Assembly: GCF_964194155.1 (NCBI RefSeq)
Contig: NC_135885.1
Coordinates: forward strand, 67,084,001 to 67,148,000
Direction: 5' to 3'
DNA: 64,000 nt
DNA from: Cetorhinus maximus
Lineage: Eukaryota
Positions 461 to 46,778 of this stretch are shown piece after piece. Numbering within the stretch: the first letter of the stretch is position 1; every line of letters begins with the position of its first letter. Made by a program: the position numbers and the translations under genes. The notes below the pieces were generated by a model that was not told where the DNA came from, made no database searches, and saw only the letters and a list, made by a program, of their open reading frames with translations.

Positions 461-469
461 TCGTGAAAG

Positions 470-2792
470 AATGAAGACGGACAGGTGGCTGAGGTGTTGG
501 TGGGGGAGCATTTTAGTGATAGCGACCACAACATGGTACAGTTTAAGTTTGTTATGGACAAAGAAATAGACAAGTTGCAAAAAAATGTTTTGGATTGGGG
601 GAGAGCGGATTTTAGTAAAATAAGGCAGGATCTGGCCAAGGTAGACTGGGAACAGCTACTTGTGGGGAAATCTACAGAAGAGCAGTGGGGGACGTTCAAA
701 AAGGAAATGGGGAGCGTTCAGGCTCAACATGTTCCCTCTAGGGTGATAGGAAGGAGTAACAAGCCCAGAGAACCATGGATGACCAGAGATATTCAGGTTA
801 CGATGAGAAGGAAAAGAGAGGCTTTTAGCAGGTTCAAGGGAAGCAAATCAGTGGAGGCATTAGTGGAGTACAGAAAGTGCAGTGCAGAGCTTAAGAAAGC
901 ACTTAGGAGAGCAAAGAGGGGATATGAGAAAGTAAAAGTAGGGAAAAGTAGGGAAAATCCTAAGATATTCTATAAGTATATCAATGGGAAGAGGATAACC
1001 AGGGAAAGAGTAGGGCCCATAAGGGACCAAGGGGACAATCTATGGGTGGAGCTAGAGGACATTGCTAGAGTGTTGAATGAATACTTCACATCCATCTTCA
1101 CCCAAGAGAATGAAGATGAAGGTATCGAACTCGGGGAGAGAGACTGCGAGGTTCTTAAACAAATTGATATAGGGAGTGACAAGGTATTGGAGGTGTTGGC
1201 AGGCTTAAAAGTGGACAAATCTCCAGGTCCGGATGATTTGTGTCCCAGACTGCTGGGGGAGGCAAGGAAAGAGATCACAGGGGCTCTGACCCAAATTTTT
1301 AATTCCTCTCTGGCCACGGGGGAGGTGCCAAAGGACTGGAGAACAGCTAATGTGGTTCTGCTATTTAAGAAGGGTTGTAGAGATAAGCCAGGGAACTACA
1401 GGCCAGTGAGTCTCACGTCAGTGGCAGGGAAACAATTAGAGAAAATTCTGAAGGAGAGAATCTATCTCCACTTGGAGAGGCAAGGTTTGATCAGGGATAG
1501 TCAGCACAGCTTTGTCAGAGGGAGGTCATGCCTAACAAATTAGATTGAATTTTTTGAGGTGGTGACCAGGTGTGTAGATGAGGGTAGTGCAGTTGATGTA
1601 GTTTATATAGATTTCAACAAAGCCTTTGACAAGGTCCCACATGGGAGACTTATAAAGAAGGCAAATGCACATGGGATACAGGGTAATTTGATAAGGTGGA
1701 TTAAAAATTGGCTTAGTTGTAGGAGACAGAGGGTGATGACAGAAGGAGGCTTTAGTGGCTGGAAGCCAGTGTCCAGTGGCGTACCACAGGGATCTGTGCT
1801 GGGTCCCCTATTACTTGTCATTTATATAAACGACTTAGGTGACTATGTGGGAGGTAGGATTAGTAAGTTTGCGGGTGACACAAAGATTGACCGGGTGGTT
1901 AACAGTGAGGTTGAGTGTCTTGGGCTACAGGAAGATATAGACGGAATGGTCAAATGGGCAGATAAGTGGCAGATGAAATTTAACCCTGAAAAGCGTGAGG
2001 TGATGCACTTTGGAAGGAGTAATTTGACAAGGAAGTATTCAATGAACGGCATGACACTAGGAAGTTCTGAGGAGCAAAGGGACCTTGGCGTGTGTGTCCA
2101 TAGATCTCTGAAGGCGGAGGGGCATGTTAAGTGGGGTGGTAGAAAAGGCATATGGGGCACTTGCCTTTATCAATCGAGGCATAGATTACAAAAGTAGGGA
2201 GGTCATGTTGGAGTTGTATAGAACCTTGGTGAGGCCACAGCTGGAGTAGTGTGTGCAGTTCTGGTCGCCACATTATAGGAAGGATGTGATTGCACTGGAG
2301 GGGGTGCAGAGGAGATTCACCAGGATGTTGCCTGGGATGAAACATTTAAGTTATGAAGAGAGGTAGGATAGACTTGGGTTGTTTTCGTTAGAGCAGAGAA
2401 GACTGAGGGGCGACCTGATTGAGGTGTACAAGATTATGAGGGGCATGGACAGGGTGGATGGGGAGCAGCTGTTCCTCTTAGTTGAAGGATCAGTCACAAG
2501 GGGACATAAGTTCAAGGTGAGGGGCAGGAGGTTTGGGGGGATGAGAGGAAAAACTTTTTTACCCAGAGGGTGGTGACGGTCTGGAATGCGCTGCCTGGGA
2601 GAGTGGTGGAGGCGGGTTGCCTTACATCCTTTATAAAGTACCTGGATGAGCACATGGCACATCATAACATTCAAGGTTATGGGCCAAGTGCTGGTAAATG
2701 GGATTAGGTAGGTAGGTCAGGTGTTTCTCACGTCTCAGTGCAGACTCGATGGGTTGACGGGCCTCTTCTGCACTGTGAGATTCTGTGATATG
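470..2792 (+). mobile_element. CR1 LINE, 5'-truncated; ORF2 C-terminal APE remnant, RT and 3' tail
   Basis: ORFs 485-1543 and 1559-2197 contain SDHNMV, KSPGPD, NYRPVSLTS, DFNKAFDKVPH, GVPQGSVLGP and FAGD (degenerate FADD). CR1 3' tail gactcgatggg...gcctcttctgcactgt. Few stops or frameshifts, so relatively young. Confidence 0.92.
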
Positions 2793-4469
2793 AATATGAA
2801 TTCTTAAAATCATGAAAAACTCCATTCATATTACATGTAACTACTAGAATTATCATATTTAATAGTTTTAAAGGAACAAATAGACTGCACTGTAATCATG
2901 CTTTGTGGGCACCTTGGGTTTCACCAACTATTCAACACATCTCCAGTTTAGTGCATTTATTAGTTCGCAAATATTGCAAAGGTCATAAGAAGAATAAGCA
3001 TGTTTTCAGAGGGTGCACCCTGAAATACTTTTATATGGATACCTTATTCTAAAGGGCACTTAAACTTTTAGTAAAAGTAAGATGCTGGACTTATGCAACC
3101 TCAGCATCCAAATTAACACCTATTTAAACTTCTAATTGGTCTGTGAGCAAGGGTATTTTTCTCAACCTCTGAAAACTGCCCATTGATCACTGAAAAAAAA
3201 ATGCTAATTTACACTTGCATCACCTCAAGGATTGACTTCTTTAATGTTCACACTTCAGGCTTCACCCTTTGATATCAATTTATTCAGAACTTCTCTTGAG
3301 CTCTGCTGGTTTGGGTCCAGGGATGTTTTTACGGCATCAGAGGTACTATACAAATGCAAGTTGGTGTTATTGGTTCTCTGTTCCCACGGAATGGATTTCA
3401 TGATCTTTGTGTCAAATCTCTCCATATTCTTACTCTGCCTCATCTCAGCTTATGTCCCCACACCATGCATCTTGGGTCCCTTCGGCACTGATGGCTCTTT
3501 CAGTACCCATTTCTTCCACTTTGCCATGAAGCCATTCTTTTGTCACAATGTCCCTCTGCAATTCATTCCTAAAACCATTTTCTCTTTTCCTTTCTCTCCG
3601 TACCTTCTAAATACCTTTCTCTTTAGCGATGCCATGGACTTCCCCTTCCCTGTAAAATAGATTCTCATTTTTCCTGCTAAGATTCTATATTTGTTATGTA
3701 CTGAAACATTTCCTTTTACACGAGGAGCATCATGATACGTCTCCTCTTTCATGAATCAACCTGAATAAGAGGAATAATTTTGTAACCAAAATGAAAGTTG
3801 GTAACCCACACGCTCCCAATATCCTAATATCATGCGATATCAATAAATGGTAACAAAGTGCAAGAAAACAGCATGGATTAACATGCACATTTTTCACTCC
3901 TGCTTAGAGGAATATGTAACTTCCGCTCATTGTTTCCCATAGGTGGACAACAAAAGGAATGTGTCACAGTAAGGACAAATCAACACTAATGCGCTCTCCC
4001 TCACCACCATACCCACCCCCTCCCCTGCAAACTCAGCCTGCTTATTCTACTTTCCAATGTAGCCAAAGGCAATTCTGATTTTCACCTAAAAATGAATTAG
4101 GCTATTATCCCAAGCTTTAAAAAATCTGCTTCACAAAATATCTGATTATAATTTGTGCAAGAATTGTAAAATGCTTCCGTTTATAAATGACAATATTAAG
4201 GCATGGGCTCACATAGCTAAGTTAGTTACCAATTGTCTCATCTGAAATAAAAAACAAACATAGAAATCAGGAATATTTTAGAACTGATCCCCATTTACAC
4301 TGTGTTGATTTCAGTTAGGCTACAGATGACTTCAACAGGTAAGGAGCAGAAATATCAGTTGGGATTTCTACTCCTGTATGCTATCCAATGACCCAGGCTA
4401 GAAACTGCACGTCTGGTGCATGTTCCTCTCCCTCTCCTCCATTCATGAGCAGAATGATTACTGTCTACA

Positions 4470-4560
4470 GGATTACTGTCACTGTTGCATTGTATGAAAC
4501 ACAGCCACCAATATGCATGCAGAAGGTTCCACAAACAGCAGTTAATGACCAGATAATCTT
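4470..4560 (-). mobile_element. 3' part of a SacSINE1/Deu-type SINE, split by the LINE at 4561-7483
   Basis: ccacaaacagcagttaatgaccagataatc matches the SINE copy at 46355-46778; the sequence resumes at 7484. Confidence 0.6.
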
Positions 4561-7483
4561 TTTTTAATTCATTCACGGGAGACTGGTTGGGCCAGAGTTT
4601 CTTGCCCATCCCTAGTTGCCCTCGAGAAGGTGGCAGTGAGCTGCCTTGTTGAAACTCTGCAGTCCATGTGGTGTAGGTACACCCACAGTGGTGTTAGGAA
4701 GGGTGTTCCAGGATTTTGACCCAGTAGTAGTGAAGGGACAGCGATATATTTCCAAGTCAGGATGGTGAGTGACATGGACAGGAACTTCCAGGTAGTGGTG
4801 TTCCCATCTATCTGCTGCTCTTGTCCCTCTAGATGGTAGTGGTTGTGGGTTTGGAAGGTGCTGTCTAAGGGGACTTGGTAGATTCCTGCAGTGCATCTTG
4901 TAGATGGTACACACTGCTGTTACTATGCATCGGTGGTGGAGGGAATGAATGTTTGTGGATGTGATGCCAATCTGCTGCTTTGTCCTGGATGGTGTCAATC
5001 TTCTCAAGTGTTGAGGGAGCTGCACTCACCCAGGCAAGAGGGGAGTATTCCATCACACTCCTGACTTGTGCCCTGTAGATGGTGGACAGGCTTTGGGGAG
5101 TCAGGAGGTGGGTTCTCGTCGCAGGATTCCTAGCCTCTGACCTGCTCTTGTAGGCACAGTATTTATATGGCTAGTCCAGCTCTGTTTCTGATCAATGGTA
5201 ACCCCCAAAATGTTGATAGTGGGGGATTCAATGATGGTAATGCCATTGAATGTCAAGGGGCGATGGTTAGATTCTCTCCTGTTGGAGATGGTCATTGCCT
5301 GACACTTGTGTGGCGCGAACGTTACTTGCCACTTATCAGCACAAGCCTGGATATTGTCCAGGTCTTACTGCATTTGGACATGGACTGCTTCAGTATCTGA
5401 GGAGTCGCAAATGGTATTGAACATTGTCAGGAAGATGTAATAATTTCCATAATGTTATTTGGAATTTATTGTAGAGTAATAGTGGGGTGTGTGTGTGTGG
5501 TGGGGGGGACGACTTAATTGAATTAAAGGCAGCTGGTCTGAAGGCTTTGATGCAAGAAGAGAAGCTAGGTTCGAAATGCTAAATAGGTAAACATGGGTGA
5601 ACGTTTGGGATGTGAGGTGTAAAGGGAACATTTGCATTTTTAAATAAACCAGAGTAGCTTGAATTCAAAAGAGGAAGGAGGCGAAATGTTACACCTAGCC
5701 AGAAGTAGTTAAGAAACAGTGTGTTTATTTTTCCCTAAGATTACTAGTAAAATTGGTACTATGACAGATTTTTATTATTAGAGAGGTAAAGTCCAAAGAC
5801 ATAGTGAAACAATGGTATTTGCATTCAAAGGGAAAAATATGTATAAAGGAGAGAAGGCTGTGTGTAAAGGCAGGCATTTTAAGATCTAACACAAGTGTGA
5901 AAAGTTTCTGCCTACAAGGAACCAAAGCTGAGGAAAACTCACTTTGATTTCGACTGTCCAGTGTGTGCTTTGCCTGGGTCTGTTTAAATCTGTGTTTTAC
6001 TGTTACCTTAATGGAGGTGCAACTGAGAGTCAGGTTAATTAGGGGATTTAGGAGTCATTATTGTAGCAATTCGTAGACATATATATATACACATGTGCTT
6101 AAAATCTTTTTCTTTTATTAATAAGTGTTTAATTTAGTTTCGTAAAAAAGCCTCTAAGCTTCAGTGGCCTGTTTACTGAATTCAAAGCCCGCATCTTGAA
6201 ATAAATACAAATTGCATTTTCTTGTGGCAGCTGCTTCAAGTTTCCCTCTGGGATTTGAGCAGCTTGGAATTTACCATCTGCTTGCCATAACAATTGTGCA
6301 ATCACCTGCGAACATCCCCATTTCTGACCTACGATGGAAGGAAGGTAATTGTTGAAGCAGCTGAAGATGGTTGGGCTGAGGACATGACCCTGAGGAACTC
6401 CTGCAGTGGTGTCCTGGAGCTGAGATGACTGACCTCCAACAACCACAACCATCTTCCTTTGTGCTAGGTATAACTCCAACCAGTGAAGAGTTTTCCCCTT
6501 GATTCCCATTGACTCCTGTTTTGCTAGGGCTCCTTGATGCCACACTCGGTCAAATGCAGCCTTGATGTCAAGGGCAGTCACTCTCATCTCACCTCAGAAG
6601 TTTAGCTCTTTTGTCAATGTTTGAACCAAGGCTGTAATGAGGTCAGGAGCTGAGTAGCCCTGGCAGAACTCAAACTGAGCATCAATGAGCAAGTGCTGCT
6701 TGATAGCACTGTTGATGACCCCTTCCATTACTTTACTGATGATTGAGAGTAGACTGATGGGACAGTAATTGGCCAGGTTGGATTTGTCCTCCTTTTTGTG
6801 TACAGGACATACCTGGGCAATTTTCCACATATCCAGGTAGATGCGTGTTGTTGCCGTACTGGAACAGCTTGGTTAGGGGCACGGCAAGTTCTGGAGCACA
6901 AGCCTTCAGTACTATTGCCGGAATATTGTCAGGGCTTACAGGCTTTGCAGTAGCCAGTGCCTTTAGCTGTTCCGTGATATCACGTGGAGTGAATCGAATT
7001 GATCTGTAAGATATGATTCCGTGAGGATGACTATTGTCAGGCTGTTGCTTGACTAGCAGCACTGTCAGGGCCCATAGCTCACCCAATTTTGGCACTAGCC
7101 CCCAGATGTTAGGACTTTGCAAAGACGACAGGGCTGAGCTTGCCGTTGTCATTTCCGGTGCCTAGGTTGATGCTGGGTGGTCCATCCTGTTTCATTTCTT
7201 TTTTGCTAGGCCATTTCAGAGGGCACATTGCTGTGGGTCTGGAGTCACATGTAGGCCACATCAGATAAGGATGGCAGATTTCCTTCCCTAAAGGACATTA
7301 GTGAACCAGATGGGTTTTTACAACAATGGTTAATGGTCATCTTTAGACTTTTAATTCCATATTTTTATTGAATTCACATTTCACCATCTTCCCTGCCTGG
7401 ACTTGAACACGGGCACTCAGAGCATTACCCTGAGTCTCTGGATTACTAGTCCAGCAACAATACCACTATGCCATTGCCTTCCC
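4561..7483 (-). mobile_element. CR1/L2-group LINE with tRNA-like 5' head and a single APE-RT ORF; internally deleted and interrupted by a solo LTR
   Basis: APE N-terminus NIWGLVPKLGEL..KQQPD (ORF 6733-7152). RT motifs ALDIKAAFDRVWH, GVPQGHVLSP and GMFAGD. A-rich 3' tail at 4561. A-box at 7463-7473 and B-box-like sequence at ~7399-7410 at the 5' end. Confidence 0.85.
5425..6292 (+). mobile_element. Solo LTR (probably Gypsy-type) inserted in the LINE RT region
   Basis: TGTCAGG...CCATAACA ends. The LINE sequence aacattg|tgcaatc is continuous across it. The ends resemble the reverse complement of the LTR at 59916-60844. TSD ambiguous (AT or ATTG). Confidence 0.65.
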
Positions 7484-7710
7484 TATGGTGACATTGATTA
7501 AGGGATAAATATTGGGTGGACATGGGTGAGTTTTTCTGCTCTTCTTCAAATAGTGCCTTGGGGCCTTTTACATCCTCCTGAAAGGACAGAAGGAGCCTCT
7601 GTTTAATGTCTCATCCCAAATACAACCGTGCCGCATTCCTCAGTCCTGCACTCAAGGCTCAGCCAAGATTTGTGCTCAAGTCTATGGGACTTGAACCCAC
7701 TTTAACCTTT
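7484..7710 (-). mobile_element. 5' part of a SacSINE1/Deu-type SINE
   Basis: Deu-core-like gcctctgtttaatgtctcatcc and B-box gggacttgaacccac; colinear with 46355-46778. Confidence 0.7.
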
Positions 7711-8244
7711 CCACCTAGGTTTTACAGATCGTAGTTAAAAATCTGAAAGAATACAGTAAACAAAATCTATAAAAAGGCAAAGATAGCAAGAGAAATCTCT
7801 GCCATAATTCTCTTTTTGATACCGAAGTTTATTTCCCCATCGCACCAAAAAAAAGCAATTGCTTAAAACCTTCTTCTCTGATCTTCATAAGTCTTCATAC
7901 TTAATGATAATTGATTAAAACAAAAAACTGAAGATTAGAAATCCAACATAAATAAATTGTGATAACCATATACTCATTTAGTGTTAATTTTTGTGGATAG
8001 AAGGCCAAAATTATTCATCAAAATTTGAAGAAAATTACATAAGAACAACCTATCATGCACAACAAAATTTTCAAATCATAAATAGCCTGAAAAACAAATT
8101 ATACCCTACCAAGACACTAAGTTTTAAATGAGATATACCAGCAAGTTCAATAATATCACTGTAAATTACAAGTGGCACAAAAACTTGAAACTTAAGCCAA
8201 CTAATCTCCATCCACCTCCACCGTCTGGCTGAACTTGTTCTCTC

Positions 8245-9760
8245 AATGAACAATTTATCTTTTAACTCATCTCACTTCCTCCAGATGAAAACTATTGGTA
8301 CCTGTATGACTTTTTTTTTTGTGGGGCATGTGGAACATTTCATGTTCCAGTCCTACTTGGGCACCCTCCCTCAAATCTTTTTCAGGTACACTAATGGCTG
8401 TACTGCTATCGCTTCCTGCTCTTACCCCAAATTGGAAAACTTCGTTAACTTTGCTTCCAGTTTCCCCCGAGCATTGACCTGGGCTTCTGGGTTACTAGTC
8501 TAGTGACATTATCATTACATCACCATCTCTCCCACATTCATTTTTGGGGATAGGCTATCAACAAATAATCATGATAACCCCATTGACTCCCATAACTACA
8601 CTTCCTCACACTCTGCACCCTGTAAGGATTCCATTCCATTCTCCCAATTTCTCCATTGCATCTGTTTGGATGATGCAACCCTCCAAAGCAGTGCTTCAGG
8701 CAGGTCTGCCTTTTATCTCATCTGAGGATTCCCCTCCACGGTAGTTGATAGGACCCTCAATCAGTCCCACACTTCTGCTCTCACCCCTTCCCCTCCCTCT
8801 CAGAGCCATGATAGGGTTCTCCTCCATATTCAACAGATCATCCTCTGCCATTTCCACCAAACATCTTTCCCTCCCATCTCCTTTCAGCATTCCAAAGGGA
8901 CCGTTCCCTCCGCTCCTCAAATCACCCCAGCCCCTTCCTATGGAACATTTCCAAGCAACAGGAGATGCAACATCTGCCCTTTTACCTCCACTTTCCTCAC
9001 CATCCAAGGGTCTAAACACAACTTCTGTCCAGGTGAAGCAGTCATTTACTTGTACTTCTTTCAATTTAGTATATTATATTTGTTGCTCACAATGCAGTCT
9101 CCTCGACACTGGGGAGACCAAATGTAGACTGGGCGAACGCTTTGTAGAACACCTCCATTTTATCCGTAAGCACGGCCCCAAGCTTTCAGTGGCCTGCCAT
9201 TTTAATTCTCCACCTTGCTCACACACTGACATATCTGTCCTCAGCCTAGCGCAAAGTTCCAATGAAGCTCACTGCAAGCTCAACGTACAACACCTCATCT
9301 TTTTATTAGGCACTTGATAGCCTTCTGTATTTGATATTTAGTTCAACTGTTTGAGACCATAACCTCTGCTCCCCCATTTTTAGTTTTCTTTGCATGTGTC
9401 TTGTTTTTCTTGCTTTACTTTCAGATGGCTGAATAATGAACATATGCCATTCAGACCTCCTCTGGACCCATCTTTTATTTTACTTGCCCCATTACCACTC
9501 TCTTTGGCTCTGTACCCCCAACTCTTCTGTCATTTAATGTCTCCCCTCTTCCCCCATCACAGATCTTCCTTTGTTCTTTTTCCACCCTCCCCCATTTCAC
9601 TCCTTAAAAGCTATTAACATCTCTACATTTTATCAGTTCTAATGATAGGTCACAACCTGAAATGCTAACTGTTTCTTTCTTCACAGAAGCTGCCTGCCAT
9701 GCTGTGCATTTCCAGTGTTTATTTCAGATTTCCAGCATCCACATTACTTTGCTTTTGTGT
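8245..9760 (+). mobile_element. Penelope-like element: RT remnant, GIY-YIG endonuclease and pLTR with degenerate hammerhead motif
   Basis: ORF 8745-9317 ends FTCTSFNLVYYICCSQCSLLDTGETKCRLGERFVEH..VACHFN (GIY-YIG with CCHH linker). RT remnant FFRYTNGC (from FRYIDD). ctaatga-taggt-cac-aacct-gaaa at ~9639-9663. Confidence 0.85.
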
Positions 9761-15898: not shown

Positions 15899-17635
15899 GA
15901 CTTGGAGGCTGGAGAAATAGTGGAGGTGTTGAACAAATACTCTGCATCTATCTTTACAAAAGAAGAAGATGCTACCCAGGCTGAGGTGATTGGGGGTGGG
16001 GGTGGGGGGGTGGCGGAGGGTGGTAACTGGTGCACTAGAAGAACTTACAATCAAGAGGAAGGAGGTTTTGGAAAGTCTATCTTTACTTAAAATAAATGAG
16101 GTGCCAGGACTCGATGAGATGCATCCAAGAGTGAGATTGGAAATTCTAGAGGCACTAGTGATAATCTTCGAGTCTTCCTTAGGGGAGATGCCAGAGGACT
16201 GGAGAACTAAGAATGTTGCAGCCTTGTTCAAAAAGGGGTGCAAGGATAAAGCCAGCACCTACAGACCAATCAGTTTGGCCTCAGTGGTAGGGAAACTTCT
16301 GGAAACAATAGTATGGGATAAAATCAATAATCACTTAGACAATTGCAGGATAATTAAGGAAAGTCAGCATGGATTCATCAAGGGAAAATCATGTTTAACT
16401 AACTTGCTGGAGCATTTTGAGGAGGTAACAGAGAAGGTTGATAAAGGAAACGCTGTTGATGTGGTGCATATGGATTTTCAAAAGGCATTTGATACAGTGC
16501 CACACAACAGACTTGTGAGCAAAATTCTAACTCATAGAATAAAAAGGAAAGTAGGCACTTGGATAAGAAATTATCCAGTGACAGGAAACAGAGTAGTAGT
16601 GATAAATGGTTGTTTTTCAGATTGGAGGAACATTTGTAGTGGAGTTCCTCAGGGGTTAGTGTTGGGACCCTTGCTCTTCCTGATATATATTAATGACCTA
16701 GACTGGTGTGCAGGGCTTGATTTCAAAATTTGCAGATGATACGACGATTGGAAATGTTGTCAACTGTGATGGGTATAGTCTTGAACTTCAAAAGGACGTA
16801 GACATGTTGGTGGATTGTTCAGACAAGTGGCAGATGAAATTCAATGCTGAGAAGTGTGAGGAAGGAAAGATATGGTGAGTCAGTATAAAATAAAGGGAGA
16901 GCCTCTGAAGGAGGTGCAGGAACAGAGGGACCTCAGTGTAGATGTACACAGGTCATTGAAGATGGCAGGGAATGTTGAGAGAGCAGTTAGTAAAGCATGT
17001 TGTATCTTAGGCTTTATTAATAGGGGCATTGAGTACAAGAGTAAGGAGGTCATGTTGAACTTGGATAAGGCACTAGTTAGGCTTCATCTGGAGTACTGTG
17101 TCCAGCTCTGGGCGCCATACCTGAGGAAGGATGTGAAGGCATTAGAGAGAATGGAGCAGATTCATAAGAATGAATCCCGGGATGAAGAACTGTGGCTATG
17201 AGAATAGATTGGGGAGGTTGGGATTGTTTTCCTTGGAGAAGAGCAGGCTGAAAGGAGATTTGATATAGGTATTCAGGATCCTCAAGGGTATGAACAGGGT
17301 AATTAGTGAGAAACTGTTCCCACTCAAGAGAACATCAAGAACTAGAGGGCACAGATTCAAAATAATTGGCAAAAGGAGTAAATGTGATGTGAGGAAAAAC
17401 TTTTTCACTCAGAGGGTGGTTGGAGTCAAGAATAAACTTCCTGAAAGGTTGGCGGAGGCAGGTTCAATTGAGGCATTCCAAAGGGAATTGGGTTGCTACC
17501 TGAAAAGAGAGAACGTGCAAGGATACGGGGATATGGCTGGGTGTGGGACTAGCTGGAATGCTCTTTCAGAGAGCCAGTGCAGACTCGATGGGCCGAATGG
17601 CCTCCTTCTGCACTGTAAAGATACTGTGAACAGTG
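15899..17635 (+). mobile_element. CR1 LINE, 5'-truncated
   Basis: ORF 15990-16739 with YRPISLASVVGKLLE, QHGFIKGKSCLTNLL, DFQKAFD and GVPQGLVLGP; CR1 tail gactcgatgggccgaatggcctccttctgcactgt. Confidence 0.9.
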
Positions 17636-17794
17636 CTTAGGGAAGAAGCCAATGAGTCAAGTTGATGGGTATTCCACAGCTGGATCTTAAGCATCAATAA
17701 AACAGATTCTTACTGACATTATCTGTAAAGTTGTAACTAGACCCCTCTCACTTTTCGTTACACCCCCTTTCACTTCTCCCCTCTCAAGTACTTT

Positions 17795-32048: not shown

Positions 32049-32511
32049 ATGGGCCAGAATTTTTAGCTCAGTATGCGGGCGGGCGCCTGACACGCCCGAG
32101 TGTGAAATAAAGCATGTTGATGTCAGCTGAGCATGCTGATAACACACACACTCGATATTTCAGTTGGCGGGCATGCCCGCCATTAATTAAGTGGCCAGTT
32201 AAGGCCCTTGAGAAACCAATTGTCTCGGACTTTACGTAGCCCGTGCGATTTTCAGGCCGTCGCATGGGCTAAACGGGCAGGCCACAATTTCAAAAACCTC
32301 ATCCACAGGTGGGATATGGGGCGGCGGGGGTTAGTGGGCTTGTAAATGCAAGTAGGATATAACTTGCTGCTGGGTGCTTGCGTGAACAGGACATCTTCAT
32401 TTTGCTTCAGAGCTGCATTGACAGAAATAAGAGACTTCAGTTTAGGACCCCAGAGGATTCATACCATTTGGGGCCTTTCAGGTATCAGACAGCCTTCCCC
32501 TTACCCTGGTA

Positions 32512-33706
32512 ATGGGGATTGTGGTCTCTGCTGGAGGCACCTCCTCTGAGGAGGAAGAGTGGGCCAAATGGGGGAGGAGGCCAGGTGTCCCTATTCAGCC
32601 TCCAGGGGAGCGACTTGTGGTAGGAGAGGTACAGGGCCAACAGGAAGTCCAAGGCGGAAAGGGCTGCAGACGACACCATTATCCTAGTGCCAGGGCTTAC
32701 AGGCGACGATGCAGCTACCTCAATATGTCTGAGGTACAATGCCAAAGGGGGCTCCGCCTCTCAAGGGAGACAATGACCTCTATTTGTCAGCGGATCAGCC
32801 TTGAGATCAGCTCTGACTGTGGGTGGACATCCCATGCCAGTGGCACTAAAGGTCACAGTGGTCCTCAACTTCTATGCCTCCGGCTCCTTCCAGGGCTCAG
32901 TGGGGGACCTGTGTGGAGTCTCCCAATCAGCTGTCCACAGTTGCATCAAGCTGGTGACAGATGCTCTGTTCAGGCATGCATTGACTTTCATTCACCACCA
33001 CATGGACGAGGCCAGCCAGGCAGAGTGAGCTATTGCTGGGTTCCCCCGTGTCCAGGTACAACCAACGGCACGCGTGGCCATCAAGGCGCCAGCAGATGAG
33101 CTGGGTGCTTTCATTAACAGGGTTTCCACTCCATGAACTTGCAGATAGTGTGAGACCACAGGATGCAGATTCTGCAAGACTGTGCAAGGTACCCCGGCAG
33201 CTCCCATGAAGCTTACATCCTGAGACATTCCCAGGTGCCAAGGCTCTTCAGTGTTCCAGCCCGATTGGATGGATGGATGCTGGGTGATGAGGGCTACCCC
33301 CTCAAAAGGTGGCTCATGACGTCTCTCCGCCACCCAAGAACAGAGACTGAGCAGCAATGCAACAGGAGCCACGGCTCCACAAGGGTGGTGGTAGAGAGAA
33401 CCATAGGTCTTCTCAAGATGCGCTTCCGATGCCTGGATTGTTCAGGGGGCGCACTCCAATACCCCCCAGATCGTGTGTCACTGATAGTGGTTGCATGCTG
33501 CGCTCTCCTCAATCTGGCTCTGGAAAGGGCGGATGCAGTGGCGGAAGATGATCTTGACACAGCTGTACAGGCAACACGATGAGTCCAGTAGTGAGTCCGA
33601 GGATGAGCACGGTCAGGAGAATGCTGAGGGCACAGACGCTAACTTGGGCAACCTCCAAGGAGGCAGGGTCACCCAGGACGCTTTGATCCAACATTTCTTC
33701 AGCTAG
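32512..33706 (+). pseudogene. Harbinger DDE transposase (HARBI1-like), frameshifted
   Basis: GHPMPVALKVTVVLNFYASGSFQ, RYPGSSHEAYIL, WMLGDEGYPL, RVVVERTIGLLKMRFRCLD and IVVACCALLN, spread over several frames. Confidence 0.88.
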
Positions 33707-34039
33707 CCTACCAAATAAAAGCCACCACCATATGCTAGGGCTGCAGGCTCCATATTTGATCACTGACAGGACCAGTTCCTTGATCAACAACATAAATTTT
33801 ATTGAAATGGCACATAGTGTAAGGAGAAACATGTCCATCATAACATTATGGCTTACCCTGCAAAAATGAAACATCCAGAGGCCAGTTACACAAAAGCACA
33901 ATTAACTGTTGCCTGGCAAATGTTCTACAAATTAACATTGACAGATGTTTTCCATCACACCAATAAACACAGAAAAATGGGAGGAAACAAATATCACCCT
34001 TGATCAGGCCATGTTGTGATTAAGGTGCTTTTAAGTCTC

Positions 34040-35760
34040 ATTTGCGGGTGCTACATCTAGGTGCTCCCCTCTCGCTGGCACTGATATTGGAGACATGCTG
34101 CTCACTCTGCTGTCCTGTTGGCCTTGATGATTTTGGCGGGTGTCCTCTGGCCTGAGGAGCCTGTGCTGGCCCACCTGGGAGTGGCTGGTGCCACAGCTGG
34201 CATCTCCCCAGTTGCCGCAGCCTCATCGGATGCCACGGTCACTGGAAGAGGGGCGGAGGAGCTGCTCTGCCCTGAGGAGCCCGCAGAGACGACAAGCAAC
34301 TCGTGCGCCAACATGAGGTCGCTCTGGACCTCCCTGCTCACCATTGGACGGGCATCTAGCTGGGATACTGGGTGCCCAATCCATTTCCCACACTGATACC
34401 ACCTGAGGTCATTGCCGGCGTAAGGGCTTGCAGGTCTGAGCACATCTCCAGTAACCCGATTCAGTTCTTGGAGAAGCCTCTCCATGAGAATCGCCACTTT
34501 CTCCATGGAGGCGGCATTGTGCCCGGCCACGAGGGTCAATGCAGTGCTCATGCTCCGCAAGTACTTCTCCACAACGGAGACCATGGCACACGTTCTCTTA
34601 TGTATCTCCGCCAGATCTTCCCGCACACCCTGCTGGATGTCCAGTGTCTGTTGCCTCATGGACGACTCCAGAGGCACATCAGCCATCAACTGATCATTGT
34701 CCTTGTCCCCAGCCGTCCTCCGACAAAAGGCGCCCTGGACACACTCTGCCTCGGCCTGCACCTCAAGCAAGTGTGAAGTACCCTCACCAATGTGCACCAA
34801 GATAGTAGCAGGTGTGTTCTGATCAGTGTGGTCCTCAGAGGTCAGGGGTGGGCCTTCAGGCTGTTCATCCCAAAGGACTGGTGGTGAGCCTAAAATGAAG
34901 AACAAGGACACGTCATTAGTCGAAGTCGTCACACTGTTACTGTGCATGCCTGGCAGCCTCGTGAGACAGAGATATGTATCAGGGTGCCCTCGTCTTTCCA
35001 TTATCAATGGGGATTCCAGGTTCAAGGCTCACACCAATATAGAGACTACAATGGAATTGTTGCAATTACCGACATTCTCACCTCAGTGCAGTCTTACCTC
35101 TGTGGCACCCCAACCTCACTGCAGCTGCTTGACCTAGGCACATGGCGCCTCTCCAGCTCCAGGGCTTCCTGCTCATAATGAGTGAGGATTATTAGGTGTG
35201 GCAGTCCGCCACCAGTACGCAACATCACGGCATTGTTATGGGATGTTTTCTCCTGGAAGGATAGAGGAGCATTGATTAATTCACTCTTTACTTGCATTGC
35301 CATTGCAGCCTAGCCTGGGGAAGACCTCGCAGGGTTCAGCCAATTCGTGACTCTAGAGCTGCAAGCCACTCAGTCCAAGCAGCCAGGGCTCACCTCTTTG
35401 CCCAGATGCTGCCTCATTGACATTTGCCACTCACACTCTTAACACCTCTGAGGTCCACAGGAGGATGGGCAGCTCTTAACTGCTCTGCAAAGTGACCCAT
35501 ACCAACACGGTACCCACCCTTCCTGATCACAGCAGATCTTTGAAGCGCTTCCAGCACTACACCCATGTGCGCCTCGCCACATCGTGGCTGCTGACTCTGA
35601 ATGCCACCTCCTCCCAGGCCTTTTTGGTGAGGTTGGGGGGGCCTCCTCCACCTGTCCCTGGGGACAAGGGTTTCTCTCCATGCTGTTACCGCCTCCAGGA
35701 GGGTAGCGAGGCACTCATTGGAGAAACAAGGGGCCGAATGCCCCAGCGACCTGCCCTCCT
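34040..35760 (-). pseudogene. Harbinger Myb/SANT-like DNA-binding protein gene, spliced, decayed
   Basis: Minus-strand frame APCFSNECLATLLEAV...TKKAWEEVAFRVSS...W..CWKRFKDLL (trihelix/SANT). Then an exon EKTSHN..RTGGG..EQEALEL with an AG|gtaag donor, then a coiled-coil-like last exon. Confidence 0.75.
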
Positions 35761-36379
35761 GCCTGCCACAACGCTCTCCATCACAACTTCCACATTTTTC
35801 AGTGGCAGCTTTCCAAGGGCTGCCGAGGCCACATTTGAATCAGCCGCTAGGTCGCCATTGGACCTGGCGTACATGGAATACCCACCCCTTCGCTCTCATT
35901 CCGCAGCTGCGTCATATGCAGGGTGGGCCTTAATTGGCTCGCCTGCGTAAAATCGTGGTGCGCTACTGATCGTGGGTGGCGGTTGGCTTTCCGACTGCCC
36001 CCACCCATCCCCGTTGATCCCGCATGCTAAGGGCAAAATTCTGTCCATGATTATGAAAACCTGGAAGATCTGTTAAGCAGAGAAGACTTCACTGGCCCAG
36101 GAAGGTGACGTAGAACATATTGTGAATTTAAGGAGAGCAGACCCCACCTTGCCCTTTGTGTACCAATGGGGAATCTCCAGCCCACACCTCCTGTTATCCG
36201 TAGCTCTGGTGCACCCATCCTACATGTCAGCTCCTATGGGAACAATGACTAAACTTCACACCTTAACCAATGTTTAGGTCACAAGGCTGTCAACTGTCTA
36301 ACACAAAGAGAAGATCCTATTCAGAGCTTATTTTAATCTTAATTTGAAATGTAAAAGGCCAAGAACAGAAGTCAGTGGG

Positions 36380-37650: not shown

Positions 37651-38606
37651 CTGGTAAAATAAGGAGGATTTGTTTGAAATTTATAATACATTAAAACATG
37701 ATAGTTCAGTTGAATTGCATCTACAAATTTAATTTCTAAATGGTATGCATCAGAAATTAAATTAACATACCAATGTCCTAAATACCTTGCTTCTATCTCT
37801 TCAATAGATTTTGTGTTGAATGGCTCAAACAGAAAACTCCTTATCAGCCACAACACCAGCCAATGCCATGAAAATACTGAGACATTTTCAAATTGCTAGT
37901 TTCCTCTTCCAGTTTTTAAAAAATATATTAACCGTCTAATCCTAGCAGCAAAGGCCTACTCAAAGGTTTTGCAAATATAAAGCCTGTTACAATTTAGAAA
38001 TAAATTAAAGTATGTATTATTGTTCCATTTTAGGTAAGCATGCACTCAACAACTGACTAGTAAGCTATTTTATTTTCTTAATTATCCAGAAACTTTGCAA
38101 TGGAAAATATTCACTGTTGAATTAGCTGATTGCTAATGTTAAATGTGACCAGAAATAAGCTGCTCAAGTAGAATAGACAATCTCACTGTCACAAAGGAAT
38201 GTATTGCTTTTGATAGATATTGGAGATAGCAATAGTAACGTCCAAGAACTCTGAATTCACTAGGAGTGAATGTCTTTTTACCATTCTCTACTCTGGTATA
38301 CAATGCCAGGAACAAAAAAAAATTCTTGCTAGGGCCATGATTTCACAAGGAAAAGCAATTATCTGGTAGTTCTGAGCTGATAATCTTTCCAACAAGTTAT
38401 CTAATCAAGGTTGTTATTGAATTCTTTCGTGAGACATGAACACCGGTAACAAGGCCAGCATTTGTTGCCCATCCCTAATTGCCCTCAAGAAGGTCGTGGT
38501 GAGTTGTCTTCTTGAAGTGTTGCAGTCCATGTAGTTTGGTATACACAGTGCTGTTAGGAAAGGAGTTCCAGGTTTTGGTCCAGTGACAGTGAAGGAACTA
38601 TGATAT

Positions 38607-39860
38607 AGGAGCAGAAATAGGTCATTCAACCCCTCGAATCTGCTCCAACATTTAATTAGACCACGGCTGATCTTCTATCTCAATGACATTTTCCTGTACT
38701 TTCCCCATATCCCTAATGTCTTTACTATCTAGAAATCTATCAATCAGTGTGTTGAACATACTCAATGACTAAGCCTCCACGGCCTTGAGTAGAGAATTCC
38801 AAAGATTTACCACCCTGAGTGAAGAAATTCCTCCTCATTTCAGTTCTAAATGGCCTAGCTGTTATTCTGAGACTGTGTAACTTGGTTCCAGACCCCACCC
38901 CCAGTCAGGGAAAACATCCTTCCTGCATCTACCTTGTTAAGCCCTGTAAGAATTTTGTATATTTCAATGAGATCGCCTCCCATTCATTTAAACTCTTTTT
39001 AAAAATTATTTGTTTACGGGATGTGGGCTTCACTGGCTAGGCCAGCATTTATTGCTCATCTGCAGTTGCCCTTGTTCAGGGGGCATTTTTAAGAGTCAAC
39101 CACATTATTGTGGACACGTAGGCTAGATCAGGTAAGTACAGCAGATTTCCTTCCCTAAAAGACATTAGTGAATCAGATGGGTTTTTACAACAATCGGCAA
39201 TGGTTTCATGGTCATCATTAGACTTTTAATTCCAGATTTCACTATCTACCATGGTGAGATTCGAACTCAGGTCCCCAGAGCATTATCCTGGGTCTCTGGA
39301 TTACCAGTCCAGTGACAATACCACTACGCCACCACCTCCCCCCATTCTAGAGAATACAATCTCTCCTCATAGTACAATCCTGCCATCCTAGGAATCAGTC
39401 TGGTGAACCTTTGGTGCACTCCCTCAATGGCAAGTATAACCTTCTTTAGGTAAGGAGACCAAAACTGTAAATAAAGCTCCAGGTGCAGTCTCACCAAGGC
39501 TCTATACATTTGCAGCAAGACATCTTTACTCCTGTACTCAAATTCTCTTGTAATAAAGGCCAACATACCATTTGCCTTCCTAATTGCTTGCTGTACCTAC
39601 ATACGAGCTTTCAGTGACACATGAACAAGGACACACAAGTCCCTTTGGACATCAACACATCCCAATCTCTCCCCATTTAAAAAATACTCCATTTCTGTTT
39701 TTCCTGCCAAAGTGCATAACTTCACATTTTTTCACGTAATAATCCATCTGCCATGCTCTTGCCCATTCAGCCTCTCTAAATCCCCTCAAAACTCACATTC
39801 CCACTGAGTTTTGTATCATTAGCAAACTTGGAAATATTACATTTGGTCCCCACATCCAAA
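38607..39860 (-). mobile_element. CR1 3' fragment nested in the LINE
   Basis: MLAFITREFEYRSKDVLLQMYRALVRLHLE..QFWSPY; CR1 tail at ~38610. Confidence 0.8.
38996..39340 (-). mobile_element. tRNA-derived SINE composed of the 5' and 3' ends of the tRNA-headed LINE
   Basis: A-box TGGCGTAGTGG (39321-39331) and B-box GAGTTCGAATCTC (~39257-39268). The body matches 7210-7483 and the tail matches the LINE 3' end. Confidence 0.85.
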
Positions 39861-40308
39861 TAGTTCCAAGTCAGAATGGTATATGGCTTGGAGGGGAACT
39901 TGGAGGTGATGAAATTCCCATGTGTCTGCTGCTCTTGTTCTAGGTGGTAGAGATTGTGGGTTTGAAAGGTGCTGTTGAAGGAGGCTTGGAGAGTTGCAGC
40001 AGTGCGTCTTGTACATAGTATACACTGCTACGACTGTGCATCGGTGGTGGACAAAGTGAATGTTTAAGGTGATGGATGGAGTGCCAATCAATTGCACAGG
40101 CTTTGTCCTGGATGAGTTCAAGTTTCTTGAGTGTTGTTGAAGCTGTACTCACTGAGACAAGTGGAGAGTATTCTATCACAGTCCTGACTTGTGCCTTGTA
40201 GATGGTGGACAGGCTTTGGGGAGTTGGGAGGTGAGTTACTTGGCGCAGAATTCCCTGGTTAACGGTAATCCCTAAGATGTTGATAGTGGGGGATTCAGAG
40301 ATGCTAAT

Positions 40309-41359
40309 TGTTATGATATCTGACTTTGCTTTCTCCTCTCAGCAGCGGCGGCGGCGGGAGGGGGGGGAGGGTGGGTGGGTGTGTGTGTGTGTGCGCGTGC
40401 GCTGGGGGTGAGGAGTACAATCCCTGGAAGGCTGCATGAAGAAAAAAAGGAAAAGAAACACAGTGAGAACCGGATCGTGTGACCCGGGAGCAGAGTGCCA
40501 TAGTCAAGAGGAGTCCCAGACAAGGGACAGGAAGGGGGTGGGGGTGCTGCAGGGAGAGGTCCCAGTTAAGATGAAAGAGAGAGAGAGAGGAGCAGAGAAT
40601 GAGGCTTCAAGCAGGGAGAAGTCCCAGTTAAGATGAGAGGGGAACAGAGAATGAGTCTTCAAGCAGAAAAAGGGCTGTGTTTGGCAGATTTTAAGTGGGG
40701 AGGATGCAGGAGAAGTCTCAAAGATCTAAAAAGGCAGCAGAAGGTTACTAACTCCGTGCTGCAGGCCGCTGGGGCAAAGGTAACCCTTTGGAGCAGTAGT
40801 GCTCTGCTCAGCAGAGTTGATGTTGTGTCCAGGAGTTGGTGTTGGAGTGCAGACTCGAGAATCCAAGGGAACAGGGTCTCGGGAGATGAGACTGAAACCT
40901 TATGAGGTGGGCCATCGTTGGGGCCATCTGAGTTGGAGCAACTTGTTGAGAGAATTCCAAGGCTGAATCTTCAAAGGTGAAGACTGGAATCTCTCATGAG
41001 AGGGGCAAGAGTTTTAACGAGATTGACTCAGTGGGTGGGTTGTTGAGAAATCTGTGAAACCTATCTTGGTTGCATCTGCCATCTACTATGCAGTGTGGTG
41101 TGTTCAACCACAGTTTGCTTGTTAATTCACATGTACCTCATATTAACCCTGAATGTTAGAGTATAAGATAGATATTGTAAATTGTTCATCTTTCTGACCT
41201 TGTATAGTAAAGTTTATTTATTCAAAACCCACAGAATCTTGTGGCTTTATTCACTTTGAAAGTGCTTGAATATCGAACTTTATCTACTTTAAACAAAACA
41301 TTATTGGTCCATAACTGGATCGTACCAGAAACTTGGGGGTCTGGTCCAGGATTATAACA
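40309..41359 (+). mobile_element. Solo LTR
   Basis: TGTTATGA...TTATAACA ends; 4-bp TSD TAAT/TAAA (one mismatch); host LINE continuous across it. Confidence 0.78.
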
Positions 41360-43728
41360 TAAAGTCATTGAACATCAAGGAGAGATGGTTAGACAGTGTC
41401 TAACCCCACCCATCTTCAGCTGCTTCATCAGCGACCTTCTTTCTGTCATAAGGTCAGAAGTGGGGATGTTTGCTGATAATTACAAAATGTTCGGCACCCA
41501 TTTGTGACTCCTCAGACACTGAAGCAGTCCATGTCAATATGCAGCAAGACTTAGACAACATTCTGCTTTGGGTTGATAAGTGGCAAATATATTCATGCCG
41601 AGGAGGGTCAGGTAATGTCTATCTCCAACAAGAGACACACCCGGTTAGTTGTTTAATTGTTCACTATTATTCACTATGAGATGTGGTAGGACTGCAGAGC
41701 TTTGATTGGATCCATGGATTGTGGGATTGGTTTTCTCTGTCTATCGCATGCTGCTTCCGCTGCTTATCATGCATGTAGCCCTGTGTTGTAGCCTTCGCCA
41801 GGTTGACACCTCATCTTGAGGTTTGCCTGGTGCTACTCCTGTCATGTCACTCTTCATTGAACCAGGGCCGATGGCCTGGCATGACTGTAGTGATAAAAGT
41901 GAGGTATATGCCATGCCATAAGGTTACAGATTGTGATTGAATGTGGTCCTTCATCTGTTGATGCCGCAAGCTGCTAGTTCTGTTCTGAATCTATCCGATT
42001 TAGCCCACTGGTAGTGCCACACAACATGAGAACAATATCCTTAGTGTGAAGACAGGAATTTGTCTCCACAAGGCTCCCTATGATCTTGCTCCCCTCAGTG
42101 CTTCTTCTAAATATTGTTCAACATGGAGGAATACTCATTCAACAGCTGACAGAGGGCAGTAGGTGGTAATCAGCAGGAGGTTTCTTTGCCCATGTTTGAC
42201 CTGATGCCACAAGACTTCAAGGGGTCCAGAGTCAATGTTGAGGGCAAGTCCCTCACGATTGTATACTACTGTGCCACTACCTCTGATGGGTCTGTCCTGC
42301 TGGTGGGACAGGACATACCCAGGGATGGTAATGGAGAAGTCTTGGACATTGGCTGTAAGGTATGATTCCATGAGTATGACGGTCAAGGCTGTTGAGTGAC
42401 TAGTCTGTGGTACTGCTCTCCCAATTCTGACACAAGCCGCAAAATGTTAATAAGGAGGACTTTGCAGCGTCGACTGGGCAGGATGTGCAGTTGTCATTTC
42501 CGGTGCTTAGGTCGATGCCAGGTGTTCCATCGGATTTTATTCCTTTTCAACTTTTCTATAGCGGTTTGGTACAACTGAGTGGCTTGCTAGGCCATTTCAG
42601 AGGACAGTTAAGAGTCAAGATTGCTGTTGGACTGGAGTCCATTGGCTCCACATTGGCTAGACTGGGTAAGGATGACCGATTTCCTCCCCTAAGAACATTA
42701 GTGAAGCAGATGGGTTTTTAACAACAATCTGGAAACTAAGACCAGTTTTTAATTCCAGATTTTTAAAAATAATTAATTAATTGCATTTAAATTCCATCAG
42801 TTGCTGTGGTGGGATGAGTCCCCAGAGCATTAGCCGCATGGGCCCGTGGATCAAGTAACATTACCACTATACCACCATCCCCAAATGAGGAAAGATTAGA
42901 GAAACTTGGACTTTTCAGCCTGTAAGAAGGCATGAGGTATGTTTTACAGAACTACACAAGATAATAAATGATATGTAAAAAGCTGATCTTGAATATTACT
43001 ATACATTGGGAACAGGACAAGGGAACACAGGTTCAAGCTAGTAACATTAAATCTGAAGTTCTTCGCATAGTGAATGTTCAACACTTGAAATGGACTTCTG
43101 GGCATAGTGGTAGAGGAGAAAACCTTCCAATCACTTAAAAAAAGCAATTAAATTTCGCAATTTGGGAGGGAAAGCAAGGTCCTTCTGGACAGATGAGTCA
43201 ACAGCTTTCCTCATTCATAAGTATCCTGTGACAAGCTGGCCTGGCTTAACATCTTACAAAACCAGCAATGGAAACTAACCAAAAGATATTGCATTTCTAT
43301 CCTTACACTAATCATACACAAAAGTAAAAAGTAAACATATTTAAATGACAAAAGGAATTTAAAAATTAACAAGTGCTCGCCACTGTGCCAATATGAGGAA
43401 GCAGAAGATGGATTTTAAGGCCAGAAGCTTGACGAACATTAAGTGGAAAGCAAACTGTTGCAGGGCTTAATGGCCAAGAAAGCAGCAGGTCAGTTTGGGC
43501 AAAGAGATAGATTGGTTAGACACAGCAACTGAATGGCAAACAGAGGAGAATCCAATGTGACAGAACAGAGTTGGAACCCCGTGAGGCACCAAAATAAAAT
43601 CAAGTTCCAAAATTGATTTAGTAACACTAAAAATAAATAACTGTACTGTGGGGATGGACCACTAACTACAATATTACTGGCAAATACAAGAGGTTTCATA
43701 TAGACTACACACAGAAAGGATAATTCAC

Positions 43729-44386: not shown

Positions 44387-46247
44387 TTTCTTTGGAAAAA
44401 TATACTTTATTCATAAGATATCTGAAAGAACATTATAAAACATTTCTAAATGGCCATCACAAAAAGTGCAATCAGATTCAACTTTTACACATGGATCATG
44501 AGGTGCTTCAATACAATCAATGTTACAGTCATTTCAATATGGTCATTACAGACAGTCAGTCGGTGCAATTATATTGGAGTTATCAACATACATCATGTTG
44601 CACTCTGAGGTGCTTCAAAACAATTGATACATTTAGTATTCAATGCATACATTCACTGTGAGTCATACAGCCCGAGGGGTCTAAACAATTCCCAGCCCCT
44701 CGGTGCACTATGGCAGAAAGATCTTAGACAGTGACCTTTCCCCATTGCGCCTTTGCGGTGGCTACCCCAAGCTTTGGTGCGTCCCTCAGCACGTAGTCCT
44801 GGACCTTGGAATGTGCCAGTCTGCAACACTCGGTCGGGGACAACTCTTTGCACTGGAAGACCAACAAATTTCGGGCAAGCCAAAGAGCGTCTTTCACCGA
44901 GTTGACGACCCTCCAGCTGCAGTTGATGTTTGTCTCGATGTGTGTCCCTGGGAACAGCCCATACAGCATAGAGTCCTGTGTCACAGCACTGCTCGGGATG
45001 AACCTCGACAAAAACTACTGCATCTCTCTCCAGACCTTCTTTGCAAAGGCACATTCCACGAGGAGGTGAACAACCGTCTCTTCCCCACCACAACCACCTC
45101 GAGGGCAACGTGCAGAGGGGGTGAGACTCCTGGTGTGTAGGAAGGATCTGACGGGGAGGGCCTTTCTCACCACCAGCCAAGCTACATCTTGGTGCTTGTT
45201 GGAAAGTTCTGGCGATGAGGCATTCTGCCAAATGACTTTATGACAGTCTGCTCGGGGAACCATCCGACAGGATCCACCATCTCCTTTTCCTACAGGGCCT
45301 GTAGCACATTATGTGCTGACCACTGCCTGATGGACTTGTGGTCAAAGGTGTTTCTCTGCATAAATTTTTCCACAAGGGACAGGTGGTATGGAACAGCCCA
45401 ACTACTTGGAGCGTTCCGCGGCAGCGCGGCCAGACCCATCTTTCACAATACCAGGGACAGGTAGAACCTCAGCACATAGTGACACTTGGTGTTTGAGTGC
45501 CAAGGGTCTACGCACAGCTTGATGCAGCCGCTCACAAAGGTGGTCATCAGGTTGAGGGCAATGTTGGGCACATTTTTCCCCCTTTATCTAAAGGCTTGTA
45601 CATCGCGTCCCTGCGAACACGATCCATTTTCGACCTCCAGATGAAGCGAAAGATGGCTCGGGTGATCCCCATTGTGCAGGAGTGAGGAATGGGCCAGACC
45701 TGCGCCACGTATAGCAACACCGAGAGTGCCTCACACCTGATGACCAGGTTCTTACCCGCAATGGAGAGGGAGCGTTGCTCCCACATGCCCAGTTTCCTTT
45801 CCACCATAGCCACTCACTCCTTCCAGTTTCTAACGCATGCCCCGGTCCCTCCGAACCATATCCACAGCACCTTCAGGCCATCTGACCTGATGGTGAAGGG
45901 GACAAACAACTGGTCAGCCCAGTTCCCAAAGAACATGGCCTTGCTCTTGCTATGATTTACCTTGGCCCCCGAGGCCAGTTCGAACTAGTCACAGATGTTG
46001 ATCAGTCTGCACACCGACAGTGGATCTGAGCAGAAGATGGCAATATCGCCCGTGTACAGGGAGGTTTTGACCAGAATGCCTCCACTGCCTGGGATCATCA
46101 CTCCTCTTATGCCCAGATCCTTCCTGATGAACTTAGCAAAGGGTTCTATGCAACACACAAACAGGACAGGGAAGAGAGGGCAACCCTGCCTGACTCGAGA
46201 TTTAATTGGAATGCTTTCTGATTCCCACCCATTGATTGAAACTGCAC
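44387..46247 (-). mobile_element. Tx1/L1-clade non-LTR retrotransposon, 5'-truncated, inserted in an old CR1 fragment
   Basis: VRQGCPLFPVLF, LYTGDI, LSIAGKNLVIR and C-terminal zinc finger CPRGGCGGEETVVHLLVEC. 13-bp TSD TTGTATCAAATCT (44374-44386, 46248-46260). AATAAA near the 3' end. Confidence 0.88.
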
Positions 46248-46354
46248 TTGTATCAAATCTCTTCTTTAGCTTCTCTGCTCTAATAGAGAGCAATTCCAGT
46301 CTCTCTGCATAACTGAAGTCCTTCATCTCTGGTACCATTTTAGTAAAATACTTC

Positions 46355-46778
46355 CATTTATAAAGCACCTTTCACAATGTTTAGCTGTAAAACAATTTGG
46401 GACATCCTATGAAGTAAGTTTGGAGTATAGTCATTGTTATAATGTAGGAAATGCAGCAGCTAATCTGCATCACACACTCCCACAAAGAGCAATGTGATAA
46501 AGACCAGTTAAGTTGTCTTCGTGATGCTGATTGAGGGATAACTATTGGCTAGGACATGGAGATAACTCTTCCTCTTTTTCAAAATAGCACCATGGTATCT
46601 TTTACATCCACCTTAGAGGGTAGACGGGGCCTTTATTTAATATCTGACACTGCTAACCATGGAGCAATCCCTTGGTACTGCATTGGAGTGTCAGCCTAGA
46701 TTTCTGTGCTCTGGAGTAGGACTTGAACCCACAACCTTCTAACTCAGAGGCAAGAGTTCTACCAACTACCAGCTGGCA
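46355..46778 (-). mobile_element. Full-length SacSINE1/Deu-type tRNA SINE
   Basis: B-box GGTTCAAGTCC at ~46720-46730, Deu core (tacatccacc..gggtagacggggcc) and L2-like tail. Confidence 0.8.

Follow-up and report, generated by a model that had tools for sequence, protein, structure and literature searches.

By the working rule that LINEs are transcribed by Pol II and SINEs by Pol III, the latter being regarded as incapable of producing long coding RNAs of retrotransposons (PMC10886601), a LINE that begins with a tRNA-like sequence raises the question of whether this head is part of the element and whether it might be its promoter. Two such LINE copies lie in the stretch analysed here, 64,000 nt of the Cetorhinus maximus genome (NC_135885.1, positions 67,084,001 to 67,148,000; hereafter the window), and a sequence-only reading had described them as minus-strand copies of an autonomous SINE-LINE chimera. 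We found the common head, 5' body, APE endonuclease start, RT and 3' tail in both copies, arranged as follows.

4559..7483, minus strand: copy A, a dead Zenon LINE, 78-91% identical to the family majority
7389..7483, minus strand: tRNA-like head of copy A, with the A box at 7473-7463, a degenerate B box at 7409-7399 and a long variable-arm hairpin
7190..7388, minus strand: non-coding 5' body of copy A, nearly invariant across five elasmobranch consensuses, with a two-codon uORF at ~7214
7002..7189, minus strand: basic N-terminal extension and APE endonuclease start of copy A, then a ~1150-nt deletion at 7002/7001
6293..7001, minus strand: first part of the copy A RT (element 1686-2412)
5428..6292, no strand assigned: later 865-nt insertion into the copy A RT, partly matching window 59994-60230
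4559..5427, minus strand: end of the copy A RT, C-terminal region, short 3' UTR and A tail
7484..7720, minus strand: upstream half of a Deu-type SINE split by copy A, its downstream half at ~4430-4558
38415..42882, minus strand: copy B, a dead Zenon LINE, 74-87% identical to the family majority, with the A box at 42874-42864 and the B-box core deleted
41405-41635: inverted piece of copy B
38608-39859, minus strand: CR1 nested in copy B
39006..39339, minus strand: short form 1 (LINE 5' 292 nt plus 3' 75 nt), within the CR1 of copy B

Element positions 538-1686 (~1150 nt of the ORF) are missing from copy A, and copy B is disrupted by deletions, an inversion and nested insertions. The A/B boxes reported for both copies are partly borne out: both A boxes are present and copy A retains a degenerate B box, but copy B has lost its B-box core. 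The A tail of copy A extends to 4559, and the halves of the Deu-type SINE on either side, whose Deu domain was recognised by eye against the alignments in the supplement of PMC7245038, rejoin across the copy and are uninterrupted in two other loci; head and LINE thus inserted as a single unit. The expectation that this unit would be enclosed by target-site duplications failed, as the mean longest flanking match in 40 copies was 5.0 as compared to 4.78±0.16 by chance. The insert at 5428-6292 is an unclassified repeat like that at 59994-60230, with similar pieces in copy B, and the copy B piece at 41092-41185 matches window 63210-63303.

At the level of the family, the head is constant. The APE start, used as a query, yielded 8,550 candidates; the best 39 other places were compared, a family majority being built from 20 of them. 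The 39 share ~3.3 kb, with unrelated DNA upstream; copies are mostly 88-95% identical to the majority, which describes a ~3.29-kb, A-tailed LINE with a single ORF (APE and RT) of 944 codons. The ~290-340 nt ahead of this frame leave no room for an ORF1, as had been noted. The head is reached in 23 of the best 39, broken off in one, and lost to truncation in the 5' region in 15; in a second set of 30 loci obtained with an APE-internal query (one duplicated pair, and three loci overlapping the first set), 19 reach the head and 11 are truncated, five of them at an A-rich linker. Neither an alternative common 5' end nor an ORF1 was seen in the 39 and 30 loci, and the junction between UTR and ORF has 6,134 exact matches in the genome. 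A chance SINE insertion would not produce this pattern. Truncations cluster at the A-rich linker immediately before the second conserved AUG (L052, L056, L059, L061, L064, L328, L329, L338 and L339); because their flanks are unrelated, this is probably a microhomology hot spot.

We conclude that copies A and B are dead members of the elasmobranch Zenon LINE, which is abundant in sharks and rays. Zenon elements have been reported from five elasmobranchs as poly(A)-tailed LINEs that "universally lacked ORF1" (Stuart et al. 2026, PMC13343379), with curated members CarCar_Zenon-1, HypSab, RhiTyp, ScyCan Zenon-1 and SquAca Zenon-1 to -3. The first 400 nt of CarCar_Zenon-1, the portion compared, match our majority by eye with a handful of differences, and the lengths agree (3288 nt versus ~3290 nt), as do the single APE and RT ORF without ORF1 and the poly(A) tail, which is A-rich in the 40 copies having both ends. 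The lack of ORF1, which had been presented as an anomaly, is therefore the usual state for Zenon (PMC13343379). The family is thus already known and curated with the same 5' end, but the anatomy of that end has passed without remark: the word "tRNA" does not occur in the main text of PMC13343379, which likewise leaves the head, the absence of T runs, the missing AUG and the short forms undiscussed. A whale shark preprint names CR1-Zenon once (10.1101/443036). The head stands at the start of the Zenon consensuses from all five elasmobranch species, shark and ray alike, those of the ray, whale shark, catshark and dogfish opening with it just as CarCar_Zenon-1 does. Two hagfish consensuses and one from coelacanth do not have it in their first 400 nt, the coelacanth 5' end being poorly resolved. 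Among outside relatives with at least 300 nt upstream, 66 of 66 gave neither an ARAGORN call nor a match to the 5' region.

In our RT tree, which contains no named Zenon reference, the element is separate from shark CR1, L2 and Tx1 and falls in a clade (support 99/94) with a crab protein, the same placement as reported in PMC13343379; its RT is 33% identical to that of the co-resident CR1 and 31% to that of the co-resident L2. On its separate RT branch the element is not a canonical vertebrate CR1 or L2, nor does it belong to the esterase-ORF1 lineage. Vingi, RTE and 2A-based interpretations were dropped, the ORF having no 2A motif and the tree giving no need for them. The repeats of the window match published shark families, in a genome of 4.0 Gb. 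A first metagenome scan returned no match and a viral scan one weak match. Lepidopteran Zenon is similarly a ~3.3-kb, single-ORF, poly(A)-tailed LINE of the CR1 group (PMC6740152).

The head is tRNA-like beyond chance. At the default score with the standard code, ARAGORN called a tRNA in the majority head and in 8 of 69 copies, and at -ps90 in 22 of 69 copies, as compared to none of 350 shuffles; the call on the majority has a Thr anticodon, ~90 nt and a long variable arm. Copies A and B of the window, too decayed, were not called. The Rfam tRNA model found no match in 8 loci at E<1, the sole Rfam match being a weak one of the tmRNA model to the T arm (E 0.83), with none to an IRES or a ribozyme. 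The A box lies at element position 11 and the B box at 75, and their commonest variants in 134 pooled copies are the perfect boxes and CpG decays of these. The acceptor stem is imperfect where the promoter boxes are perfect, and copies begin a few nt before the cloverleaf. Of 24 genomic tRNAs covering 6 isotypes, Gln gave the closest match, in a sample biased by having been fetched with a head-based pattern. At G000:C35:9027000-9132000, tandem matches to the tRNA-Gln arm alternate between CTG and TTG anticodons with a period of ~2.8 kb. As in SINE2, the head carries A and B boxes, but the LINE encodes APE and RT and so is neither short nor non-coding. A MetaSINE or DeuSINE body was rejected, as neither of those two domains follows the head by eye in the alignments of the PMC7245038 supplement, and no counterpart of this SINE body was recognised in the available parts of PMC5499810, PMC4824008 and the supplements of PMC11481361 and PMC7245038.

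If the head were a working promoter, one would expect the sense strand to be free of Pol III terminators, a check that the sequence-only reading had itself proposed. The 3,284-nt sense strand contains no T4 run, with 4.4 expected from composition (P 0.012), and 6 T3 runs with 21.7 expected (P 7e-5), as compared to 14 A4 runs, so that the element has the uninterrupted interior of a type-2 Pol III unit. Within the ORF, 4 T3 runs compare with 12.8±2.5 under synonymous-codon shuffling (P 0.0002); the absence of T4 taken alone is not significant under codon (P 0.08) or dinucleotide (P 0.19) shuffling. The ORF has no TTA codon, and no non-canonical terminator pattern was found. The result was reproduced in a further majority built from 40 other copies and in all 134 copies pooled, and individual copies carry 0.38 T4/kb versus 4.62 A4/kb. 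Co-resident LINE majorities behave differently: CR1 has 10 T4 runs in 2750 nt, a Tx1-like element 5 in 2100 and L2 4 in 1300. The CR1 copies used lie at 467-2197 (+), 15990-17640 (+) and 38608-39859 (-) of the window; a Tx1/L1-like ORF2 at 44600-46400 (-) has many genome copies at 92-93%. Among outside controls (160 loci, 106 with a query-matching ORF of at least 600 aa, all single copies and mostly T-richer), none of the 106 ORFs was without T4, and the lowest ratio of observed to expected T3 was 0.72, as compared to 0.22 in the Zenon element.

The depletion is nevertheless not all peculiar to the element. Its nearest relative with DNA, L245, which falls in the same supported clade, has an equal T content of 0.201, one T4 and 15 T3, so that the low T is in part inherited. 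L245 is a 3.1-kb contig in a MAG with its 5' end missing, and many bacterial MAGs contain eukaryotic LINE contigs as contamination. The codon-shuffle z was similar in one other control (-3.7 vs -3.4). Variants shared between copies among the 134 showed no detectable avoidance of sites that would make T runs, in a comparison of low power, and no old subfamily proved distinct enough to serve as a separate check. We also considered T-then-A tails, found in ~9 of 40 copies, as terminators; because an internal A run of copy B shows the same change, we read them as mutation.

No start codon for the ORF stands out at its 5' end. The ATG-ACA that had been taken as the start of APE does not share the APE frame in the majority, and does so in copy A solely through a 7-nt deletion; it is in fact made up of an A and, after it, an Arg codon of the APE frame that has undergone CpG decay, this codon being TGA in 37, CGA in 36 and CAA in 23 of 134 copies (21 not covering it). 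The frame extends upstream as an Arg-rich extension, as in homologues, and no conserved in-frame AUG opens it. The sole upstream in-frame AUG, in strong context ~290 nt in, was rejected as a start because it runs straight into a stop in most copies and in each of the five species' consensuses; a minority lineage is open past this point, but several of its members have a stop six codons on. The other conserved AUG, shifted from the frame by one base, opens a 35-codon uORF. No canonical -1 slippery site was seen by eye, and the 5' region of one copy folds no better than shuffles (z -1.1). AUG-independent initiation, if it occurs, would fit an uncapped RNA.

Besides the LINE, two abundant SINE-like forms carry the head, each consisting of the first 292 or ~315 nt of the LINE joined to its last 75 nt, and these are short and non-coding as SINE2 elements are. 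Their junctions have 7,304 and 6,089 exact matches; form 1 is 95% identical to the LINE majority, and their divergence (6.5-7.9%) is like that of the LINE (7.0%). Because they are built only of the two ends of the LINE, they may derive from it, heads included, and the position of the two breakpoints at the uORF region favours an origin by deletion. The proposal that the head was captured from a SINE is thereby left unproven, as the SINE-like elements with this head consist solely of LINE ends; what stands of the SINE-LINE chimera is that an autonomous-type LINE has a tRNA-type head as a constant component. A comparable partner is Persaeus, the SIDE of lepidopteran Zenon, which is also abundant and made from the two ends of its LINE (Wang et al. 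2019, PMC6740152), but which is described there as having no tRNA homology or Pol III promoter, unlike the shark LINE and its short forms. The bipartite SINEs Bov-tA and SINE2_Gav likewise combine a tRNA head with LINE 5' and 3' parts; in these it was a non-autonomous derivative that gained the head, its partner LINE having none, whereas here the coding LINE has it (PMC5786205).

Taking the head, the T runs and the short forms together, we lean toward the view that the elasmobranch Zenon element is an autonomous LINE that would be transcribed by Pol III from its tRNA-like head. TFIIIC would bind the internal A and B boxes, Pol III would initiate ~10 nt ahead of the A box and would read through 3.3 kb since selection had removed terminators, and the uncapped RNA would be translated by an AUG-independent route, maybe via the conserved 5' body. 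Target-primed reverse transcription, begun at the 3' tail, would then let the LINE protein copy the RNA that encodes it. With an internal Pol III-type promoter, loss of the LINE middle would leave a complete SINE and so account for the two short forms. The full version, in which a protein-coding retrotransposon transcribed only by Pol III, with a terminator-purged ORF, uncapped AUG-less translation and SINEs arising by internal deletion, became successful in sharks and rays, is more tentative, and we hold it somewhat short of probable. An uncapped, start-codon-less mRNA of 3.3 kb would require a novel translation route, which counts against the Pol III reading.

We found no description of a Pol III-driven autonomous LINE in the literature searched, which was covered in part and did not include Repbase. 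RTE-1_DAn and related elements (Kojima 2018, PMC5786205) are, going by their description, LINEs with a tRNA-like sequence matching SINE2; they belong to the RTE clade, and the available text does not give the position or role of that sequence. The TRIMp3 elements Cassandra, Helenus and Ajax (Kojima 2024, PMC10886601) are likewise non-SINE retrotransposons with a Pol III promoter derived from a small RNA, but they are non-autonomous LTR elements of 0.3-1.3 kb; Pol III processivity is held to limit such elements to ~1.3 kb or less, and their autonomous partners were argued to need Pol II. If true, Pol III transcription of Zenon would provide a natural Pol III-made mRNA, from a family whose 3' end has at least 58,100 exact matches in one genome, breaking the working rule; it would also raise the question of cap- and AUG-independent translation, and would offer a one-step route from LINE to SINE.

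Alternatively, one could envision the head as the fixed remnant of a template switch that happened long ago, with the LINE made by Pol II from a promoter in the 5' body or by read-through, and the lack of T runs due to inherited composition or to a constraint at the RNA level. LINEs are regarded as Pol II units (PMC10886601, PMC5786205), and L245 is as T-poor, with its single T4. An AATAAA lies 45 nt ahead of the tail in most copies, compatible with Pol II, and Pol II itself can also terminate at long T tracts, weakly at five T (PMC7615648). The two AUGs kept across species suggest scanning. Against this, perfect A and B boxes and a cloverleaf have been maintained in sharks and a ray, the TTT depletion is confined to one strand, holds up under codon shuffling and is not seen in any of the three co-resident LINE families, the AATAAA is mostly missing from the tail of short form 2, and in most copies the ORF is opened by neither of the conserved AUGs. 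Four putative-RNA contig sets aligned to a head-less copy cover the ORF, and start, strand and level are unreadable from them. We regard this explanation as unlikely, though a serious competitor of Pol III transcription from the head.

A less probable possibility is that the head acts at the RNA level, either being excised from host read-through RNA by tRNA-processing enzymes, which would set the 5' end, or aiding cap-independent translation, in a role like that of the HDV-like ribozymes of other ORF1-less LINEs. The uniform 5' end, the full cloverleaf including the anticodon arm and the missing in-frame AUG would suit such a role, for which RTE, Ingi and R2, whose 5' ends are led by ribozymes (PMC5786205), provide a precedent. 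It would leave the avoidance of T runs over 3.3 kb unexplained, and neither an acceptor stem less well kept than the promoter boxes nor copies that start a few nt ahead of the cloverleaf would be expected from it; we thus consider it improbable. The idea of an abundant SINE joined by chance, or by repeated template switching, to 5'-truncated copies of an ordinary LINE could draw on the abundance of the short elements with the head but is refuted by the one fixed head-to-ORF junction, the same in five species, by the absence of a SINE tail between head and ORF, and by the want of any other common 5' end in the 39 and 30 loci.

Elsewhere in the window, positions 51200-51631 (+) hold what we take, from its translation, to be a histone H2B-like pseudogene. 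The stretch 32446-35950 is GC-rich, with Harbinger-like nuclease and Myb/SANT-like fragments recognised by eye, and a Penelope-like GIY-YIG fragment, also recognised by eye, lies at 8726-9317 (+).
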